Of a DNA stretch of 64,000 nt, positions 14,011 to 21,121 are shown piece by piece. The notes beneath the pieces were generated by a model that searched no databases, was not told the origin of the DNA, and saw only the letters and a program-made list of their open reading frames with translations. Position numbers and translations under genes: made by a program. The first letter of the stretch is position 1; every line of letters starts with the position of its first letter. The stretch is taken from assembly GCA_963849325.1 (NCBI GenBank), contig CAWKHF010000004.1, positions 416,001 through 480,000 on the forward strand. The letters run 5' to 3'. This DNA comes from an uncultured Planctomycetota bacterium. Lineage in GTDB: Bacteria > Planctomycetota > Planctomycetia > Gemmatales > Gemmataceae.

Positions 14011-15551
14011 GACGAAGAATCTTCATGGTGCCGTGCCCATCCAAATATATTTGTCCGAGTCTGAAGCGTAAGCGAAGGGAACCTCTTCGCTTACGCTTCC
14101 GGCTCGGAGGGGTTCGGCGCAGGCGCGCCGGGCTGCTCGGAATTGCCCTGATAACGGCGCTGTCCTTCGCTGCCCCTACTCGCGCTTCCGATTGGCCTCA
14201 GTTCCGCGGTCCCAACTGTTCCGGCCGTGCTCCCGCTAGCGAGCGGCTGCCCGACCGCATCGGGCCGTCGGTGAACGTGGTCTGGAAGACGGCACTGCCG
14301 CCGGGACACTCCTCTCCCATCGTGGTCGGCGACCGCGTTTACCTTACCGCCGTCCAGGAGAAGCGGCTGCTCACCCTCGCGCTGGACCGCAAGGATGGCC
14401 GCGTTCTCTGGCAGAGAGAGGCGCCGGCCCCTGTGCTGGAGACGGTGCATCGCATTGGCAGTCACGCCCAGTCCACGCCGGCCGCCGACGGTGCGGGCGT
14501 CGTCAGCTTCTTCGGCTCGTGCGGCCTGTTCGGTTACGACCGCGACGGCAAGCTCCTCTGGCACCGCGCCATGGGTCCGTTCAAGAACGACTTCGGGGCC
14601 GGCAGCTCGCCCGTCCTCGCCGGCGACAAGGTGCTGCTCAGTCAAGATCACGACCAGGGTTCCTTCCTCATGGCCCTCGACAAGCGTAGCGGCGAGACGC
14701 TCTGGAAGACGGATCGCTCCGAGTTCCTGCGCGGCTACTGCACGCCGGTGGTCTGGGACGTCGCCGGGCGGAAACAGGTCGTGGTGGCGGGCACGCTGCG
14801 CGTGGCGGGCTACGACCTGGACAACGGCAAGGAGATCTGGACCGTTCGCGGCATCGCCCGCACCATCTGCATGACCCCCGTGGTCGGCGACGATGGCCGG
14901 CTCTACGCGGCAGGCTGGTCGGCGGGCGGCGACGCCGGCGCGCGCATCGAGGTGGAGCCGTTCGACGCCGTCGTCAAGCGGCTGGACAAAAACGGCAACG
15001 GCAAACTCGAGTCCGAGGAGTTGAAGACCGGCCCGATCGCCGAGCGCTTTACCCAGGTGGACGTGGACAAGGACGGCTCCATCACGCGGCAGGAGTACGA
15101 GCGCTTCCGCGGGCTGTTCCGAGAGGGACGAAACGTCGTGCTGGCCATTCGTCCGGGCGGCACGGGGGATGCGACGGACTCGCACGTCGCCTGGAGGAAT
15201 ACTCGATACGTACCCTTCTGTGCCTCGCCGCTGTACCTCGACGGACTGGTGTACACGGTCAAGGACGGCGGCTTCCTGTCCAGCCTGGACGCCCGCGATG
15301 GCGAGTTGGTCCGGCGCGACCGGCTGCCGGGCGGCGGCAACTATTACAGTTCGCCGGTGGCGGGCGACGGCAAGATTTATCTGCTCAATGAACGAGGACG
15401 GCTGACGGTGGTGCAGGCCGGCCGCGACTGGCGGGTGCTCGGCGCCAGCGATTTCGAGGAGGATACCTACGCCACGCCGGCCATCGCGGGTGGACGGATC
15501 TATCTGCGCACCGCCGGTCATCTGTATTGCTTCGGGCTGCCGACGCCGTGA
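14007..15551 (+). CDS. PQQ-binding-like beta-propeller protein with EF-hand-like insert
   Basis: DWPQFRGP, GHSSPIV, YYSSPV and TPAIAGGRIYLRT motifs; DKNGNGKL and DVDKDGSI EF-hand-like loops. Confidence 0.88.
   Translation: MRRRIFMVPCPSKYICPSLKRKRREPLRLRFRLGGVRRRRAGLLGIALITALSFAAPTRASDWPQFRGPNCSGRAPASERLPDRIGPSVNVVWKTALPPGHSSPIVVGDRVYLTAVQEKRLLTLALDRKDGRVLWQREAPAPVLETVHRIGSHAQSTPAADGAGVVSFFGSCGLFGYDRDGKLLWHRAMGPFKNDFGAGSSPVLAGDKVLLSQDHDQGSFLMALDKRSGETLWKTDRSEFLRGYCTPVVWDVAGRKQVVVAGTLRVAGYDLDNGKEIWTVRGIARTICMTPVVGDDGRLYAAGWSAGGDAGARIEVEPFDAVVKRLDKNGNGKLESEELKTGPIAERFTQVDVDKDGSITRQEYERFRGLFREGRNVVLAIRPGGTGDATDSHVAWRNTRYVPFCASPLYLDGLVYTVKDGGFLSSLDARDGELVRRDRLPGGGNYYSSPVAGDGKIYLLNERGRLTVVQAGRDWRVLGASDFEEDTYATPAIAGGRIYLRTAGHLYCFGLPTP
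14054..14108. repeat. REP-like palindrome, family B, inside the predicted 5' end of the PQQ gene
   Basis: TCCGAGTCTGAAGCGTAAGCGAAG...CTTCGCTTACGCTTCCGGCTCGGA; matches 955-1009. Confidence 0.8.
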
Positions 15552-15658
15552 GCCGTACAAACTTCTGCCTCGGAACAGTTTGGCAAATCTGCGTACCATT
15601 CAACCGCTGCTCGCCTACTTCGGCCGCGAGTTGTCCAAGCCATGACCGTAAGAAGCTC

Positions 15659-15789
15659 CAAGAAGAAGAGCCTCACGCAAAGGCGCAAAGAACGCAAAGG
15701 AAAAGAGTAAAGAAAGGTCAAAACGGCTCGCGCCTATTATTTGTCTTTCTTTGCGTTCTTTGCGCCTTTGCGTGAGGCTCTTCTTCTTG
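15659..15789. repeat. Long palindrome, 9-bp-periodic CGCAAAG family
   Basis: CAAGAAGAAGAGCCTCACGCAAAGGCGCAAAGAACGCAAAG ... CTTTGCGTTCTTTGCGCCTTTGCGTGAGGCTCTTCTTCTTG. Confidence 0.9.
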
Positions 15790-15871
15790 TTCGTCGTCTC
15801 GGCGTTCGCTAAGTTAGGGGCGGGACCATCTCGCACCGGTCCACGCCTGCCTTCCCTGCCGAGACGCACTC

Positions 15872-17353
15872 GTGAACGACACTTCCGATTCCGTTGCGGT
15901 CCACGCGGCCCGGCCGACGCGCGTGCGGCACCTGGTCCTGGCGGCGCTGTGCGCCATTACGACCATCAACTACATCCAGCGCAACAGCCTCGGCGGCGCG
16001 GAGACGACGGTTCGCGCCGACCTCGAATTGACGAAACAAGACACCGGCGATGCGATGGGCGCCTTCTTCCTGACGTACGCCCTGTGTCAGGTGCCCAGCG
16101 GCTGGTTGGCCCAGCGCTGGGGCGGGCGACGCGCGTTGACGTGGTATGCGGCGGGCTGGTCGATCGTGATGGCGTTCACGGCCGCGGCCTCGAACTTGCC
16201 CGCCCTTATGAGTGCGCGCTGGGCGATGGGCGCCTTGCAGGCCGGCATTTTCCCCTGCTGCACGATGATCTTGGCCTCGTGGTATCCGGTCACGCGCCGC
16301 GGCTTCACCTCGGCCCTGCTCAACAGCTTCATGCTCAGCGGCGGCGTTCTCGCCTCCTGGATGACCGGCAAGCTGATCGGGCCACTGGGGTGGCGCTGGC
16401 TGTTCTTGCTGTATGCCCTGCCGGGCCTGGCGTGGGCCTACTGGTTCGCCCGATGGTTCCGCAATCGGCCCCAGGAGCATCCCTCGGTGAACCCAGCGGA
16501 GCTAGCGATCATTTCTCCGCGGACCGTCAACGTGCCGGCATCCAACGCCTTCGATTCCGGCCGGCCGGCCCAGAGCTTTGCCGACGCCGCGGAGCCAGAC
16601 GAAAGCATCGCGGCCAACCGAGAGGCGCTCTCGACCGAGCAATCCCCGAAGCCGCTCTGGGTTCGCGAGCGCGACGCCGAAGTCCGCGACCTGGTCCAGC
16701 GCAGTGCTGAAGCCGTCGATTCCCTGGGCCGCGATTTTCCTCAGTTCGGCGCTGTGGTTGATCTGCATCCAGCAATTCTGTCGATCCGGGCGCTGCGCTT
16801 CTTCGACATGTGGCTGCCAACCTACTTGCAGGAAGTGCGCGGTCAATCGGTGAAGGATGCCAATTATTTGACCAGTCTGCCGTTGTTAGCCGGCATGATC
16901 GGCGGTCCCGTCGGCGGCATTCTCTCCGATTTCGTGCTGGCGCGCACGAGAAGTCGCCGGGCCGCTCGGCAGGGCGTGGCCATCGGCGGCATCCTGGGGG
17001 GTCTGCTCGTCTACGTGCTGGCGTATCAAGTCTCGGACTTGACTGGGGCCGTGCTGCTCGCCTGCCTCGGCCTGTTCATCATGACGTTCTCCTCGCCCTG
17101 CGCGTATGCGCTGTCGATGGACATGGGCGGCCGCAATCTCGCGGTGATCTTCGCCATGATGAACATGGCCGGCAACCTGGGTTCGTGGGCCTTCACCAAG
17201 TTCGTTCCGCGCGTCGTGAACGGACGCGGCTGGGAGACTGCCCTGCTCATCTTCGCCGCCATGCACGTCGTCGCCATCGTCTGTTGGCTGCTGCTCAACC
17301 CTAACGGGATTATCGGCGAATCGGCCGACGCCATGACCGCTTCCAAGGAGTGA
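15872..17353 (+). CDS. MFS transporter (anion:cation symporter-like); probable compensating frameshifts mid-gene
   Basis: RPTRVRHLVL, INYIQR, YALCQVPSGWL, GWRWLF, WLPTYL and MNMAGNLG motifs. Confidence 0.88.
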   Translation: MNDTSDSVAVHAARPTRVRHLVLAALCAITTINYIQRNSLGGAETTVRADLELTKQDTGDAMGAFFLTYALCQVPSGWLAQRWGGRRALTWYAAGWSIVMAFTAAASNLPALMSARWAMGALQAGIFPCCTMILASWYPVTRRGFTSALLNSFMLSGGVLASWMTGKLIGPLGWRWLFLLYALPGLAWAYWFARWFRNRPQEHPSVNPAELAIISPRTVNVPASNAFDSGRPAQSFADAAEPDESIAANREALSTEQSPKPLWVRERDAEVRDLVQRSAEAVDSLGRDFPQFGAVVDLHPAILSIRALRFFDMWLPTYLQEVRGQSVKDANYLTSLPLLAGMIGGPVGGILSDFVLARTRSRRAARQGVAIGGILGGLLVYVLAYQVSDLTGAVLLACLGLFIMTFSSPCAYALSMDMGGRNLAVIFAMMNMAGNLGSWAFTKFVPRVVNGRGWETALLIFAAMHVVAIVCWLLLNPNGIIGESADAMTASKE

Positions 17354-17566
17354 ATATCAGGCTGGGCCAGTGGATCTGCTCTCTCGCGGGCGCTCTGGCC
17401 GCGATCTATCGTCTGGCCGGGGCCGCCGATCATTTGCAGCGCAAGTGATCCTCTTGCCCCGTGGAGAGAATCTTCGATTTTTGGTGAACCATTTGCCGCC
17501 GTCCGCGTCTATCCAATGTGTGAGGACGAGCGATCCCAGCAATGGATCGCGGAACCTGGTCCCGAG

Positions 17567-17671
17567 ATGACAATGCATAAGGATTGCGGATTACGAAGGA
17601 AGGACCAATCGGCCAGGCATCTGGCTGATCGATGGGCGAATGGCCTCCCCGCTCATCCTCCGCGCTGGTGA
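17567..17671 (+). CDS. Putative 34-aa leader peptide MTMHKDCGLRRKDQSARHLADRWANGLPAHPPRW
   Basis: Open frame from ATG 17567 to TGA 17669-17671; the stop lies inside the antiterminator 5' arm; RBS weak. Confidence 0.5.
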   Translation: MTMHKDCGLRRKDQSARHLADRWANGLPAHPPRW

Positions 17672-17740
17672 CACCAAGCTCCTTGGGAAAGGCGGCTTGC
17701 GAGGCCAGGTGTCACCACGAGATGCCTGGCCTTTTTGTTT
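17611..17740 (+). promoter_or_regulatory. Candidate transcription attenuator upstream of the tRNA array
   Basis: Mutually exclusive pairings: 17702-17713/17721-17732 (terminator), 17666-17675/17708-17717 (10-bp antiterminator), 17611-17622/17720-17731 (12 bp). Confidence 0.65.
17702..17740 (+). terminator. Intrinsic terminator immediately before the first tRNA of the array
   Basis: AGGCCAGGTGTC-ACCACGA-GATGCCTGGCCT then TTTTGTTT (12-bp stem with 2 G-U pairs plus U-tract). Confidence 0.75.
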
Positions 17741-17813
17741 GGGCTGGTAGCTGAGATGGTTGTAGCGGCGGTCTGAAGAACCGCAGACGAGGATTCGAGC
17801 GCCTCCCGGCCCA
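17741..17813 (+). tRNA. tRNA-Phe(GAA), array
   Basis: GGGCTGG/CCGGCCC acceptor; GCGGT-CTGAAGA-ACCGC anticodon arm; TTCGAGC T-loop. Confidence 0.8.
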
Positions 17814-17898
17814 CTCGGACAAATGGATTCGGTGTTCGGATCAGGAGAACAACCATGCCACAACTTTCTCGCTTCAAACGTCGCGCCCTCCCCTATTG

Positions 17899-17970
17899 GG
17901 GGTCGTGGCGTAAAGGCAGCGCACAAGTCTTTTAAACTTGGAGGTGTGGGTTCGACTCCCACCGGCCCCA
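17899..17970 (+). tRNA. tRNA-Lys(TTT), array
   Basis: GGGGTCG/CGGCCCC acceptor; CAAGT-CTTTTAA-ACTTG; GTGGG-TTCGACT-CCCAC. Confidence 0.88.
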
Positions 17971-17995
17971 ATGCTCTGATGGACAGTGAATAGAC

Positions 17996-18067
17996 AAGTC
18001 CGAGGTGTTAGCGGCAGCATAACCGGCTCCAACCCGGACGGTGAGGGTTCAAGTCCCTCCGGACTTG
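17996..18067 (+). tRNA. tRNA-Trp(CCA), array
   Basis: AAGTCCG/CGGACTT acceptor with G73; CCGG-CTCCAAC-CCGG; GAGGG-TTCAAGT-CCCTC. Confidence 0.8.
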
Positions 18068-18090
18068 CTGATGATTGCTTGGCGACCGAT

Positions 18091-18162
18091 GAGTCCAAGG
18101 TGTTAGCGGCAGCATTTTCGGCTCTTACCCGAACGGTGAGGGTTCAAGTCCCTCTGGGCTCA
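18091..18162 (+). tRNA. tRNA-Lys(CTT), array
   Basis: GAGTCCA/TGGGCTC acceptor; TTCGG-CTCTTAC-CCGAA; D and T arms identical to the preceding tRNA-Trp. Confidence 0.8.
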
Positions 18163-18182
18163 CGGTTTGGATTGTCTTCGTG

Positions 18183-18255
18183 CAGCGTGTGGGGTAGCGG
18201 AGTGCCCGCCACCTCGGGAGGGTGGAGAACGCTGGTTCAAATCCAGCCACGCTGA
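18183..18255 (+). tRNA. tRNA-Pro(GGG), array, C33
   Basis: CAGCGTG/CACGCTG with A73; CCACC-TCGGGAG-GGTGG; GCTGG-TTCAAAT-CCAGC. Confidence 0.8.
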
Positions 18256-18302
18256 CTGTAATCATTGGCCCTCCGCTTCGTATCAGAGGATGGAGAGATC
18301 GC

Positions 18303-18376
18303 CGAGGTGTGGGGTAGCGGGAGTGCCCGCCTGCTTCGGAGGCAGGAGAACGCTGGTTCAAGTCCAGCCACCTCGA
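18303..18376 (+). tRNA. tRNA-Pro(CGG), array
   Basis: CGAGGTG/CACCTCG with A73; CCTGC-TTCGGAG-GCAGG; GCTGG-TTCAAGT-CCAGC. Confidence 0.85.
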
Positions 18377-18428
18377 CTTCGCCGCCCGGGCCGACCGCCC
18401 ACGGCCCGGGCGGCTGGCAGGGGCGAAG

Positions 18429-18502
18429 GCCCAGCTGCGCCAAGCGGCAGAGCGACCCGGCTTAAACCCGAGTGGATGAGGGTTCGACTCCCTCGCTGGG
18501 CA
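18429..18502 (+). tRNA. tRNA-Leu(TAA), array, short variable region
   Basis: GCCCAGC/GCTGGGC acceptor; CCCGG-CTTAAAC-CCGAG; 5-nt variable loop; GAGGG-TTCGACT-CCCTC. Confidence 0.75.
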
Positions 18503-18518
18503 ACGGCACGAATCCTAC

Positions 18519-18592
18519 GGCCTGCAAGCTCAAACAGTTCGAGCAGCCGGTTGTCAACCGGAAGGGTGCGGGTGCGAGTCCCGTGCGGGCCG
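18519..18592 (+). tRNA. tRNA-Asp(GTC), array
   Basis: GGCCTGC/GCGGGCC with G73; CCGG-TTGTCAA-CCGG; atypical T-loop TGCGAGT. Confidence 0.8.
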
Positions 18593-18602
18593 CTGCAACG
18601 AT

Positions 18603-18678
18603 TGCGGAGTGGACTGGAGGCAGTTTCCAGCACGGTCTCATACGCCGTCCGACGCCGGTGCAACTCCGGCCTCCGCAA
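18603..18678 (+). tRNA. tRNA with CAT anticodon (Met, fMet or Ile2), array
   Basis: TGCGGAG/CTCCGCA acceptor; ACGGT-CTCATAC-GCCGT; atypical T-loop TGCAACT. Confidence 0.7.
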
Positions 18679-18695
18679 CTGATTTCGGGTAAGAG

Positions 18696-18774
18696 GGCCG
18701 AGTACGCAAATCCGGCAAAGCGGCCAGGTCGAGAGCCTGGTGATCGATTGCGGGTTCGACTCCCGCCTCGGCTA
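18696..18774 (+). tRNA. tRNA-Leu(GAG), array, C33
   Basis: GGCCGAG/CTCGGCT acceptor; CCAGG-TCGAGAG-CCTGG; GCGGG-TTCGACT-CCCGC. Confidence 0.78.
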
Positions 18775-18863
18775 CTGATGACAGAAGGATGTCCGCGGTC
18801 GGCAGGAAAGACAGGCCGGGCGCCCGCGCCGATTGTCGTCTGTCGCCGGCCCTTCTGCATCGT

Positions 18864-18936
18864 GGTCCCGTAGTTCAACGGCTTGAACACCCGGCCCACA
18901 TCCGGGGACGAGATGGTTCGACTCCATCCGGGATCA
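18864..18936 (+). tRNA. tRNA-Val(CAC), array, C33
   Basis: GGTCCCG/CGGGATC acceptor; CCCGG-CCCACAT-CCGGG; GATGG-TTCGACT-CCATC. Confidence 0.8.
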
Positions 18937-18941
18937 CTGTC

Positions 18942-19012
18942 GGGTTGCTCGTCCAAGGGAAAGACGCCGGTATCGCAAGCCGGAAATCGGGGTTCAACTC
19001 CCCGGCGGTCCA
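18942..19012 (+). tRNA. tRNA-Ala(CGC), array
   Basis: GGGTTGC/GCGGTCC with the G3-U70 Ala determinant; CCGGT-ATCGCAA-GCCGG. Confidence 0.8.
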
Positions 19013-19020
19013 TTGACATG

Positions 19021-19091
19021 GGGCCTATCGTCCAACGGGAGGACGCCAGCTCGGCAGACTGAAAATCCGGGTTCAATCCCCGGTGGGTCCA
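19021..19091 (+). tRNA. tRNA-Ala(GGC), array, C33
   Basis: GGGCCTA/TGGGTCC with G3-U70; loop TCGGCAG, imperfect anticodon stem; CCGGG-TTCAATC-CCCGG. Confidence 0.72.
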
Positions 19092-19687
19092 CTCTCCCTT
19101 GTCACCCCGATGGTGAAATGGACATCATCCCTCGCTTCGAACGAGACGTTCTGGGTTCGACTCCCGGTCGGGGTAATTCCGTATTCTCCCCTCTCCTCCG
19201 GCCAGGAAGCCGCCCCCTGGTGGGGGAATAGCCCGCTTTGCTTCACGGCGTCCAGACCCTCCCGCAGTTCAGTCCGCAACCGACGCTCGATCTCTTCCTT
19301 GCGGGAGTCGTACCCAAAGATTGCCTCAGCGCGTGCGAGGGTCCACCACAGGGAGCGTTCCTCGGCGGATTCACCCGGATACTCGTCGAGATGAATGCGA
19401 TGGTTCGGGGGTCGCTCCTCGTTCAAGGCTCGCAAGGCGGCGGCGGCCTCCGGCAAGGACAAGCGCCCCTCGATCAAATCGACGACGACCGCTTCCATCG
19501 CCTTCGAGTTCGCCTGCACGAGTTCACCATCCTCCTGGAGACGTTCGCGGTCCTGGGCCGTCTGCCACCAGTCGGCGAAGGCTTGTCGGCCGTCAGTGGA
19601 CAAGGCGATGCCGGCGTACAGTACAATCGGCAGCGAGGCCGTGAGCGCGAGAAACCGGAATGCTACCGTCATTCTGCGTACCCCCAA
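19073..19687 (-). CDS. Hypothetical membrane-anchored protein; true 3' end probably upstream of the tRNA array
   Basis: N-terminal TM, then helical LIEGRLSLPEAAAALRAL region; the C-terminus runs antisense into tRNA-Arg, so it is suspect. Confidence 0.5.
   Translation of the reverse strand: MGVRRMTVAFRFLALTASLPIVLYAGIALSTDGRQAFADWWQTAQDRERLQEDGELVQANSKAMEAVVVDLIEGRLSLPEAAAALRALNEERPPNHRIHLDEYPGESAEERSLWWTLARAEAIFGYDSRKEEIERRLRTELREGLDAVKQSGLFPHQGAASWPEERGEYGITPTGSRTQNVSFEARDDVHFTIGVTRESGPTGD
19104..19175 (+). tRNA. tRNA-Arg(TCG), array
   Basis: ACCCCGA/TCGGGGT acceptor; CTCG-CTTCGAA-CGAG; CTGGG-TTCGACT-CCCGG. Confidence 0.8.
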
Positions 19688-20199
19688 AAAGGCAGCGGGG
19701 TCCGACCGTCATTCACCGCTATTCTGATAAACGGCCGAAAGAGCTGTTTGGAGACAGGGCAGGATGCGATTCTCCGCGCCGACGCGAAATGAACTCCGGA
19801 TGTCGAGCCGGTTGAGAGAGGAAGAGATGGTGAAAAAGGATGCGAGCGGAGGCGACAGAACGGCAATTGAACTTTTTATCGCCGGCATCCAGGGCTGGGA
19901 AGCCGGCTTGCGGCAGATTATCTCGGGGAAATCGAGCAGCGACACGCAATCGTAAATCATTGTGTGATCTTTGCTTCCGAACAGACTCTCGGCATGGAGG
20001 GCCGACCGCGCGGCAGTCTACCCAGAAATCGACTCTTACGAATCTCATCTCCCGCGCCGATTCCTCCAATCCGCTCATCCCCCTCTGATCGGCGTATTCG
20101 GCAGGACCATACCGCTCCTTTCCTCTTGCCGCCAGTACGAGACGGTACGAACATGAGGATATGGCCTTCCCCTGGTGGTTCCTCCTCGGTCTCAACCGC

Positions 20200-20769
20200 A
20201 TGAAACTCTTCTCCGCGATCCGTTGGGTTCTCCGCCTCCTCTTGCTGCCCCGCAGCCAACTCGTCCTGGAGAATCTGGCCCTGCGTCAACAACTGGCCAT
20301 CTTCAGCCGACAGCGGCCACGACCATCGCTGCGCCGCCGCGACCGACTCTTCTGGATCTGCCTATCGCGGTGGTACTCAGGGTGGCGCTCAGTATTGGTC
20401 CTCGTACAACCGGACACGGTCCTCCGCTGGCACCAGCAGGGCTTCCGTCTGTGGTGGCGCTGGAAGTCCCGGAGGAAGCGAGCGGGGCGTCCGCCGCTGG
20501 ACAAGGAAGTCCGTGACCTCATCGGCCGCATGGCTCGTGAAAACCCGACCTGGGGCGTTCCGCGTATCCGGGCCGAACTGCGCCTGCTGGGCCATGACGT
20601 CGCCGAAGCCACCGTGGCCAAGTATCGGCCGCAGCCACGTCATCCCAAGCCGCCGTCGCAGACCTGGCGGACATTCTTGAGGAACCACGCCGGCACGCTG
20701 GCTTCGATGGATTTATTCGTGGTGCCCACGATCACATTTGATCGGCTCTGCTTGCCCATCGCGTCGTAG
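20200..20769 (+). pseudogene. Truncated rve-type integrase/transposase
   Basis: LENLALRQQL, VQPDTVLRWH, RMARENPTWGVPRI and TWRTFLRNH...MDLFVV motifs; ends just after the first catalytic Asp. Confidence 0.8.
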
Positions 20770-20821
20770 CCAGCGCTGCCCGTTCGAGTGGAAGTCAGCG
20801 TCATTCGCCCTGGACTCCTTC

Positions 20822-21121
20822 TTATCCTTGTCCGTCACCGTTGTAAGAATAGGTGTAGGTAGCGATCGGACCTCGCGTGTCCTCCGCGAGGGGCGCCAGC
20901 GGGAGAGGGAGGGTGGAATACTCTTCCACGCGAACGAACCCGCTCATGCCATCGTAGGTATAGCTGTAGGCGGAATCACATTCGCTCCGCTCGCGGAGGT
21001 CGGCCGCGGGGGGTCGTCGGGGAGCGGTGGCGGTTCGGGCCGGACGCGGGCAGAGCCAGGCGGTCAAGCCAGCTAACACGCTGCCCAGTAGGCGGCGGCG
21101 AGAGAGTCGATCTGTACTCAT
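20822..21121 (-). CDS. Small exported protein with twin-arginine-like signal and YD-like motifs
   Basis: GGAGGA RBS; SRRRLL plus hydrophobic stretch; YSYTYDG and YTYSYNGDG. Confidence 0.65.
   Translation of the reverse strand: MSTDRLSRRRLLGSVLAGLTAWLCPRPARTATAPRRPPAADLRERSECDSAYSYTYDGMSGFVRVEEYSTLPLPLAPLAEDTRGPIATYTYSYNGDGQG

Follow-up and report, generated by a model that had tools for sequence, protein, structure and literature searches.

What decides whether a long run of redundant tRNA genes is transcribed? The question is raised by a 64,000-nucleotide stretch of planctomycete DNA, here called the window, in which 13 tRNA genes follow directly on a short open reading frame (ORF) and an intrinsic terminator. 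The leader in front of this tRNA operon is probably a ribosome-mediated transcription attenuator. It has three features of one, namely a conserved, in-frame short ORF, a terminator on the same transcript and an antiterminator which overlaps the end of the ORF. The original prediction of ribosome-mediated attenuation is supported as far as sequence comparison goes, by the position of the ORF stop, the competing helices and the search for a second promoter.

The array and its leader in the window

The array has the order Phe-GAA, Lys-TTT, Trp, Lys-CTT, Pro-GGG, Pro-CGG, Leu-TAA, Asp, Leu-GAG, Val-CAC, Ala-CGC, Ala-GGC and Arg-TCG, with all 13 genes head to tail in 1.4 kb. ARAGORN and Rfam place the start of tRNA-Phe(GAA) at the same base, 17741. 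ARAGORN finds 92 tRNA genes in the window genome (G000), in which the window is C4:416001-480000. For 12 of the array tRNAs a single-copy gene with the same anticodon exists elsewhere in the genome, and the array copies share only 43-64 identical positions with these counterparts. The sole tRNA-Leu(TAA) gene of this 85%-complete assembly is in the array. The window array is a divergent, redundant set of the long-tRNA-array kind. The genome has two other long arrays (C1:515629-516193 and C12:838476-839555) and a Pro-Ser-Ser cluster; the leader is absent from both of these arrays. In the portions available, two reports list Planctomycetes among the phyla with long tRNA arrays (PMC4758250, PMC8421152), and the first sets a threshold of 20 genes for an "array unit", which the 13-gene cluster of the window does not reach. 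The available part of another report terms planctomycete tRNA clusters degenerate and possibly dispensable (PMC4807772). The leader has an MFS transporter gene (15872-17353) as its upstream neighbour, and a transposase-like HTH ORF lies on the 3' side of the array.

Table 1. Features of the leader and tRNA array, in window coordinates.
Feature	Position	Strand	Description
Promoter-like motif GTGAACC-N15-CGTCTA after a T run	17484..17511	+	From motif comparison; presumed transcript start
Leader ORF	17567..17671	+	34 codons and UGA (17669-17671); alternative start at 17573
Hairpin within leader ORF	17608..17629	+	AUCGGCCAG-GCAU-CUGGCUGAU; seen in folds
Antiterminator arm TGGTGACACC	17666..17675	+	Holds the leader stop UGA (17669-17671); pairs with 17708-17717
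Spacer hairpin, antiterminator arm to terminator	17676..17698	+	Seen in folds
Intrinsic terminator	17701..17740	+	13-bp stem, 7-nt loop, TTTTTGTTT tract
Array of 13 divergent tRNA genes	17741..19175	+	ARAGORN; Rfam scores 41-67 bits

The terminator consists of GAGGCCAGGTGTC (17701-17713), the loop ACCACGA, GATGCCTGGCCTT (17721-17733) and the TTTTTGTTT tract, and the terminator scan counts 7 G-C pairs among the 13 of the stem. It ends at the base before tRNA-Phe, as had been predicted. As a class, terminator-like sites are not enriched in 16500-20500, where 3 are found and 3.1 are expected from shuffles. At the position of the spacer hairpin, alignments with relatives show hairpins of other sequence.

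Both strands of the terminator have a second possible partner. The reverse complement of the arm TGGTGACACC (17666-17675) matches GGTGTCACCA (17708-17717) in the 5' strand and the loop at every base, so the perfect 10-bp pairing claimed for it is real. A run of this length compares with a mean of 5.5 in shuffled arms and is reached by 1 of 100. The segment GGCCAGGCATCT (17611-17622) is the exact reverse complement of AGATGCCTGGCC (17720-17731). The scripted score gives this second pairing an 11-bp run against a shuffle mean of 6.4, which 0 of 100 shuffles reach. This segment is the 5' half of the hairpin within the ORF, and the 3' arm of the terminator is its alternative partner. The claim of a pairing with the 3' arm holds in the window and fails as a family feature, since it beats shuffles in only 8 of the 79 listed leaders described below, 5 of them from the clade of the window.

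Folding of 17660-17719 yields the antiterminator (-26 kcal/mol) and folding of 17660-17745 yields the terminator (-37.2 kcal/mol). The segment 17600-17745 folds with both alternative pairings together (-65.5 kcal/mol, z -2.2). Taken singly, the window sequence has modest folding z scores, from -1.6 to -2.2; the weight of the case lies in the comparison with relatives.

Translation from 17567 gives the peptide MTMHKDCGLRRKDQSARHLADRWANGLPAHPPRW and a stop, with the C-terminus ...GLPAHPPRW. Translation and coordinates confirm that a 34-codon ORF has its stop inside the antiterminator arm. The in-frame ATG at 17573 aligns with the start codon of close relatives. The ribosome binding site had been called weak, and indeed none of GGAG, GAGG and AGGA precedes the ATG of the window leader; in this genome one of them lies upstream of 602 of 1922 long ORFs (31%, against a background of 15%). 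A search of 17354-17740 against Rfam (E up to 1) finds no family in the leader, the T-box (RF00230) included, and a scan of 15000-21000 at the same threshold returns only tRNAs and chance matches.

In the mechanism proposed here, transcription would begin at the GTGAACC...CGTCTA motif and the nascent RNA would include an ORF of about 33 codons. From the last codons of this ORF through the UGA and for a further 4-12 bases, the RNA would make up an arm that complements the 5' arm and loop of an intrinsic terminator some 30-35 nt downstream. If the ribosome were delayed, stalled or absent, the free arm would pair with the emerging 5' arm as an antiterminator, RNA polymerase would read through and RNase P would excise the tRNAs. 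A ribosome on the UGA would cover the arm, so that the terminator would form, the transcript would end in the U tract and the array would be off. Since a ribosome on the UGA would mask the arm, expression of the array should be low while translation keeps pace with transcription and should be induced when ribosomes are late. The inferred direction of control would then be off with a ribosome on the UGA and on with a late one. Translational stress is a plausible physiological signal, under which the array might supply backup tRNAs. The conserved C-terminal residues and the UGA-C context may help to hold the ribosome on the stop.

Conservation of the competing helices

A BLAST query with 17354-18100 against 41 genomes, namely that of the window and 40 relatives, gives matches in 17, the window genome counted. 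A leader, terminator and tRNA-Phe are found together in three genomes of the same genus (L003-L005) and in two of other genera (L007 and L009). Two further genomes (L006 and L008) are leaderless, with a T-run-GYGAACC-N15-18-CGTCTA motif immediately before tRNA-Phe; in those with a leader, the motif is found upstream of it. The first six leaders have an ATG frame of 32-34 codons with the stop TGA within CGC-TTG-TGA-C. Their C-termini read HPLRL-stop, with HPPRW-stop in the window. The leaders of L007 and L009 have no other sequence similarity to that of the window and retain the frame, the length and the end. In the arm/loop pairing the window has GG..CC and the relatives have TG..CA, a compensatory change.

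A pattern made from the tRNA-Phe gene alone was used to scan a collection of species representatives, which gave at least 119 stretches. Those listed are nearly all from Planctomycetota (Pirellulaceae, Planctomycetaceae, Gemmataceae and Lacipirellulaceae), and two are otherwise labelled. Together with the earlier loci they make at least 127 loci, at least 126 of them distinct; since the sequences are related, locus counts overstate independence. A simple hairpin finder recovers the terminator in 103 of the 126 distinct listed loci. About 11 of the 23 that it misses have, by eye, a terminator with a bulge or a broken T run. GTGAC lies 25-70 nt before the stem in 86 of the 103 listed terminator loci; 15 of the remainder lack GTGAC (several keep TGAC) and 2 have too little flank. 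In most listed loci the stop codon is 29-41 nt upstream of the terminator stem. Therefore, going by the size of a ribosome footprint, a ribosome on the stop should cover the 10-15-nt arm and leave the terminator uncovered. The spacer from terminator to first tRNA varies from 8 to 163 nt among listed loci and is 8-11 nt in the window and 16 others. The terminator thus abuts the tRNA in the window as claimed and in some listed loci only, so abutment is not general.

The helices were compared in an alignment of 79 listed leaders, from 18 nt before the stop to 8 nt past the terminator. These leaders were chosen by a GTGAC requirement, so the invariance of GTGAC in the alignment is by construction. 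The terminator helix is paired in 97.0% of cells, against 24-52% in slid controls. Ten of its 13 pairs have changed on both sides, and 0 of 500 shuffles reach it by any measure. For the antiterminator (columns 16-30 with 92-106) the paired share is 84.6% of cells, compared with 29-43% in slid controls, and none of 500 shuffles attains its covariation score or percent paired. Two count-based measures of antiterminator covariation are within the range of the shuffles, 66 and 84 of 500 of which reach them. The clearest covarying pair of the antiterminator is 24/98, which is C-G in 65 leaders, U-A in 8 and U-G in 4. The arm and the 5' arm pair over a contiguous run of 8-12 bp, and in 65 of the 79 listed leaders this run outdoes at least 95 of 100 shuffles. 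The loop bases of the terminator that lie opposite the GU of GUGA are conserved. The expectation that both the terminator and the pairing of the stop arm with the 5' arm would covary is thus borne out in this alignment, the count-based antiterminator measures excepted.

The order of folding also bears on the mechanism. When only the RNA preceding the 3' arm is folded, the antiterminator results in 77 of the 79 listed leaders; with the segment complete, the terminator results in 73 of the 79. Since the antiterminator folds first and the terminator forms when the segment is complete, the choice between them should be kinetic, as in known attenuators. The terminator is thermodynamically favoured even without a ribosome, which counts against the attenuation reading. 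An anti-antiterminator (region 1) was not found in the leader.

The leader frame and competing explanations

The leader frame is open in a specific phase. An ATG ORF of 28-47 codons ends at the TGA of the GTGAC in 79 of the 86 listed loci, whereas the same test finds 1 of 86 in each of the other two frames. The three frames are open for at least 28 codons in 85, 39 and 27 of the 86, respectively. The stop inside the antiterminator arm, which the original prediction had expected to be conserved upstream of homologous planctomycete arrays, is therefore kept in those 79 loci. In a set obtained by covariance model, 26 of the best 29 loci have an ATG frame of 28-50 codons that ends at TGAC. Of the 74 listed leaders with a codon in the start column, 73 have ATG there.

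The consensus of the 79 listed leaders is M-x-x-x-R-x-S...E-R-x-G...F-A-G-Q-P-A-N-x-L-P-A-[HY]-P-L-R-L-stop, and a Rhodopirellula-type variant ends in AYPRLM-stop. The last five residues are conserved while the N-terminal and middle parts vary widely. One Ser column switches between codon families, with AGT in 26, AGC in 7, TCC in 18, TCA in 5 and TCT in 1 (AGY 33, TCN 24). The Pro at -4 uses all four codons (CCT, CCG, CCC and CCA) and the Leu at -3 uses five (CTG, CTA, CTT, TTG and TTA). The alignment also has in-frame insertions of unrelated sequence. Single-base differences between pairs of listed leaders are synonymous in 9971 cases and non-synonymous in 16331 (38% synonymous). Counting against a coding role, codon periodicity is weak, with summed column entropies of 40.0, 42.9 and 45.3 at codon positions 1, 2 and 3. 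The Shine-Dalgarno core is found in only 16 of the 79 listed leaders. The segment TTCGCCGGCCAACCGGCGAA, read as FAGQPAN, is itself a perfect hairpin, which counts against conservation of the peptide only, and CGC TTG TGA lies inside or beside the pairing arm. Judged from the alignment, part of the "peptide" conservation is RNA constraint. On the same comparison, the constraint on the middle of the leader is chiefly one of RNA, and that on the N-terminal part chiefly one of length. We infer that the leader frame is translated, and the last five residues are likely to be under selection at the peptide level.

The codons of the window leader may bear on what the attenuator senses. In codon adaptation this leader ranks at the 7th percentile of gene windows, and TTA, AGG (twice), ACA and CGA (twice) occur in it. 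No tandem regulatory codons are found in the window leader. Among the listed leaders an Ile column is ATA in 36 of 36. The occurrence of ATA and TTA was compared with that of tRNA-Ile(TAT) and tRNA-Leu(TAA) in the array in 29 loci, which gave too few cases. By hand count, 18 of the 34 window codons have a cognate tRNA in the array, which is unremarkable. Codon adaptation of the 79 listed leaders by the weights of this genome was discarded as meaningless at other G+C contents. The poor codons, the TTA and the tRNA-Leu(TAA) found only in the array give hints of feedback on tRNA supply which are not significant. It is a tentative possibility that the leader is a sensor of tRNA supply in an autoregulatory loop around a second, divergent tRNA set. 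Depletion of or damage to particular tRNAs, with anticodon nucleases, starvation and antibiotics as examples of a cause, would then slow the decoding of rare codons such as UUA, AUA and AGG, among others. The ribosome would arrive late, which would open the antiterminator and lead to the production of replacement tRNAs. If true, tRNA genes would for the first time be known targets of leader-peptide attenuation, with conservation throughout a bacterial class, and the "degenerate" planctomycete tRNA clusters would be a regulated backup decoding system.

A TnaC-like regulated arrest on the stop codon is an unlikely alternative to simple timing of ribosome arrival. Here [H/Y]-P-L-R-L and UGA-C would slow or condition release, and the time spent on the UGA would report a small molecule, the activity of release factor 2 or another factor instead of arrival time. 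In E. coli, termination is poor at a UGA with C as the next base, and a UGA is also where TnaC stalls. The conservation of the last five residues at the peptide level, with synonymous changes while the rest varies widely, fits such an arrest, as does TGAC, which several listed loci retain without the preceding G. However, a search of Pfam and NCBIfam with 4 leader peptides gave no relevant match and no similarity to a known arrest peptide family. The last two codons and the UGA are also bound by RNA pairing, so part of their conservation needs no peptide function. The arrest has no candidate ligand, and the architecture works without it.

A further alternative is that the leader is an independent gene for a small protein with its own terminator, and that arrays are transcribed from unrecognised promoters or by unregulated leakage. 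The linkage test (INDEPENDENTLY) used a covariance model of the 79-leader alignment that contains no tRNA sequence. In the window genome it finds the window copy and one weak match, C5:673928 (25 bits), which has no tRNA nearby and was set aside as probably an ordinary terminator. At E up to 0.01 it matches in 63 of 101 genomes of one family, often several times per genome. Each of the best 29 full-length matches (49-77 bits) is followed immediately by tRNA genes in the same orientation, and 28 of these 29 show at least two tRNAs within 1.5 kb. The first tRNA after the best 29 is of 11 kinds (Phe, Glu, Lys, Gly, Ile, Pro, Trp, Gln, Asp, Ser and Cys). In an even sample of the phylum, 4 of 151 genomes are matched at E up to 1e-5, namely the window genome and 3 of 6 genomes from one other family of the same class. 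Within the class the element is thus a leader found specifically at tRNA arrays, and its association is not limited to tRNA-Phe.

The transcript presumably starts at the GTGAACC-N15-CGTCTA motif, whose role as a promoter for leader and array is suggested by where it occurs. By a strict pattern, 50 of the 79 listed leaders have the motif at a distance of 35-116 nt before the ATG, and further ones have near-matches or short flanks. In the window genome it precedes all four tRNA clusters and tRNA-Arg(CCT) and no other single tRNA; these make up 13 of the 92 tRNA genes and 5 transcription units, and the background frequency of the motif is 0.008 per 300 nt. The form GYGAACC...CGTCTA presumably resembles promoters of ECF sigma factors (GAAC...GTC). 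A search for the regulon with the strict motif gave mostly intragenic chance matches and was abandoned. A promoter of the array downstream of the terminator had been named as evidence against attenuation; the motif is absent between terminator and tRNA in 102 of 103 listed loci, and in the single listed locus that has it the terminator is not of the leader type. In the window the spacer is so small that it has no room for a promoter.

These results make the independent gene very unlikely. In its favour, the gap between terminator and tRNA is 25-163 nt in many listed loci, the other two arrays of the window genome lack the leader, and planctomycete promoters are to our knowledge uncharacterised, so the motif search could miss one. 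Against it, the spacers of 8-11 nt in the window and 16 listed loci leave no space for a promoter, and the stop codon is part of a helix which both competes and covaries with the terminator. The constant position of the best 29 matches before tRNA genes of such different kinds also argues against it, as do the leaderless relatives, in which the upstream motif lies directly at the tRNA.

The evidence for transcription itself is limited to relatives. Contigs of relatives from two soil metatranscriptomes span the terminator and tRNA-Phe, and one runs from the leader to tRNA-Lys. These contigs are compatible with read-through transcripts, for which they are weak evidence, and may derive from DNA. 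Among the sequencing runs searched for words of 17300-18300, none holds at least half of them (shares 0.06-0.17), and the raw-read RNA run X22 has 0 reads on the stretch.

The interior of the ORF is structured. Against dinucleotide shuffles its mean z is -1.97 in the 79 listed leaders, with 43 below -1.64 and 3 above 0. This agrees with a possible pause hairpin. RNAalifold on the whole leader finds the terminator as the only consensus helix. Across the element family it finds no conserved interior helix; the interior hairpins differ between lineages and do not align. A switch of RNA only, in which a ligand, a protein or a tRNA picks the helix and the open frame is a by-product of G+C-rich RNA, is the most improbable of the explanations, since the structured interior, the weak periodicity, the scarce Shine-Dalgarno core and the "residues" that are hairpin arms would suit it, but the frame-specific ORF with its ATG column, the Ser codon switches, the in-frame insertions of very different sequence, the lack of a shared interior helix and the lack of an Rfam family, T-box included, in the leader speak against it.

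Relation to known systems

The geometry of attenuation is that of the trp, his, leu, thr and pheA leader peptides of enterobacteria. These amino-acid attenuators share with the planctomycete element a short translated leader, mutually exclusive antiterminator and terminator helices, a U-tract terminator before the genes and a terminating ribosome whose place on the stop covers the antiterminator strand. They regulate enzymes, whereas the planctomycete element precedes tRNA genes. In contrast to the trp type it has no codon run for a single amino acid and no anti-antiterminator was found in it. Its leader is also longer (about 33 codons), has a conserved C-terminal motif and is hosted by Planctomycetia.

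The tna operon shares a conserved leader peptide that ends at a UGA, with occupancy of the stop deciding downstream transcription. In tna the stalled ribosome blocks Rho and the genes are on, whereas in the planctomycete element the ribosome should favour the terminator and turn the genes off. TnaC and the planctomycete leader have no sequence similarity. T-box leaders (RF00230) also link a terminator/antiterminator switch to the tRNA economy; they are untranslated and precede synthetase or amino-acid genes, unlike the conserved ORF and tRNA genes found here.

Term-seq work has reportedly described antibiotic-responsive uORF attenuators of resistance genes. As far as the available text of one report describes them, uORF attenuators of the B. 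subtilis vmlR type share the principle that an unfinished uORF frees the antiterminator and that translational stress induces the genes (PMC9226507). The difference is that a tRNA set is downstream here instead of a ribosome-protection or efflux factor, and that the planctomycete leader has no known arrest motif. The Anabaena trn operon is likewise a redundant, divergent array beside a housekeeping set, according to the portion of PMC8421152 at hand. In the available parts of PMC8421152 and PMC10272220 this array is normally silent and is induced by translational stress, and the latter describes its repression by TrcR. Anabaena uses a ribbon-helix-helix repressor at the promoter, whereas the planctomycetes would use a cis-acting leader ORF and terminator. 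The words "attenuat", "leader" and "terminator" have 0 occurrences in the available text of PMC8421152.

A search of the open-access literature found nothing on attenuation or leader peptides for tRNA arrays, in agreement with the original prediction that no such control had been described. In the literature searched, leader-peptide attenuation is known for amino-acid biosynthesis, resistance and pyrimidine genes, all of which are protein-coding operons. The element appears to be a case of leader-peptide attenuation with a new target class, widespread in Planctomycetia and undescribed. It would place textbook attenuation logic before tRNA operons, and do so in a phylum where little is known of gene regulation. 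It would also be a parallel to the stress-induced array of Anabaena by a different, cis-acting solution.

Since the element is conserved in at least 63 of 101 genomes of one family, it argues that the clusters are used, conditionally, against the view that they are degenerate. The question of what tRNA arrays are for becomes testable in cultured carriers of the genera Rhodopirellula, Stieleria and Rubripirellula, such as Rhodopirellula europaea 6C, Stieleria magnilauensis and Rubripirellula obstinata; Neorhodopirellula pilleata is another carrier. Apart from its place in the switch, the conserved leader peptide [H/Y]PLRL-UGA is new and may act as a motif for pausing at termination.

Promoter-like motif of the tRNA clusters

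The genome that holds the window (G000) has a promoter-like motif, T-run-GYGAACC-N15-18-CGTCTA, upstream of every tRNA cluster and of tRNA-Arg(CCT). The motif is absent before all other single tRNA genes of this genome. The GYGAACC...CGTCTA pattern is similar to ECF-sigma promoters, which suggests that the tRNA arrays of G000 may form a regulon of an alternative sigma factor.

Features in the window and elsewhere in its genome (G000)
Feature	Location	Strand	Remarks
Promoter-like motif	window 17484-17511		T-run-GYGAACC-N15-18-CGTCTA
Promoter-like motif	C1:516264	-	same pattern
Promoter-like motif	C12:839603	-	same pattern
Promoter-like motif	C5:1105954	+	same pattern
Promoter-like motif	C2:9995	+	same pattern
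tRNA array, 7 genes	C1:515629-516193		outside window
tRNA array, 13 genes	C12:838476-839555		outside window
Inverted repeat, 44 nt	window 15659-15789		98% complementary, 43 nt between arms; gap before MFS gene
ORF with HTH_32/HTH_21 domains	window 20161-20769		transposase-like; ~1 kb downstream of array
Weak tRNA-like match (Tymo_tRNA-like)	window 18611-18680		Rfam 22 bits, E 0.22; tRNA-Asp/tRNA-Leu(GAG) gap

Arrays without a leader

Both G000 arrays outside the window have the promoter-like motif and lack the leader as well as the terminator. Going by the tRNA genes that ARAGORN lists, 19 amino acids are covered by the three arrays of G000 combined, with Met alone missing. Natural leaderless variants also occur in the same genus as the window, at loci L006 (genome G007) and L008 (G003). 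In these the promoter-like motif is followed directly by tRNA-Phe, the ORF and terminator are missing, and L006 has the same MFS gene upstream as the window. These two loci are natural controls that could be of use to experiments.

Leader codons and array tRNAs

The window leader contains a TTA codon (17591-17593), which makes up 1% of the Leu codons in G000. The array behind the leader carries tRNA-Leu(TAA) (18429-18502), and no other gene for this tRNA was found in the assembly, which is 85% complete. In the alignment of 79 leader peptides from the matches listed, all 36 Ile codons of the Ile column are ATA. tRNA-Ile(TAT) is rare in bacteria. It is present in several arrays (L138, L142, L146, L150 and L010), and PMC4807772 remarks on it in planctomycete tRNA clusters.

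Spacers, labels and surroundings

Four relatives' loci (L067, L100, L116 and L117) have an extra G+C-rich hairpin of ~30 nt (GCCCGGCCTGCCGGCCGGC) between the stop arm, where the leader ends, and the terminator. The insertion results in a stop-to-terminator distance of 64-66 nt, and both arm and terminator are retained despite it. Six others (L020, L026, L039, L068, L076 and L079) have 80-106 nt between the terminator and tRNA-Phe, consisting of repeats of short words such as TTAGC and CTAA. Such long spacers were seen in some Stieleria/Rubripirellula-type loci.

Among the matches listed, L075 and L085 carry labels outside Planctomycetota (Candidatus Entotheonella and a Bryobacteraceae MAG), and have an array-type tRNA-Phe with a leader-type terminator. 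Binning contamination or transfer is the likely explanation.

The transposase-like ORF hints that the window array adjoins mobile DNA. Rfam matches to microRNAs on both strands before the MFS gene are spurious products of the inverted repeat. The gap between tRNA-Asp and tRNA-Leu(GAG) in the window array is 102 nt, and the tRNA-like match within it is possibly the remnant of a former tRNA gene.
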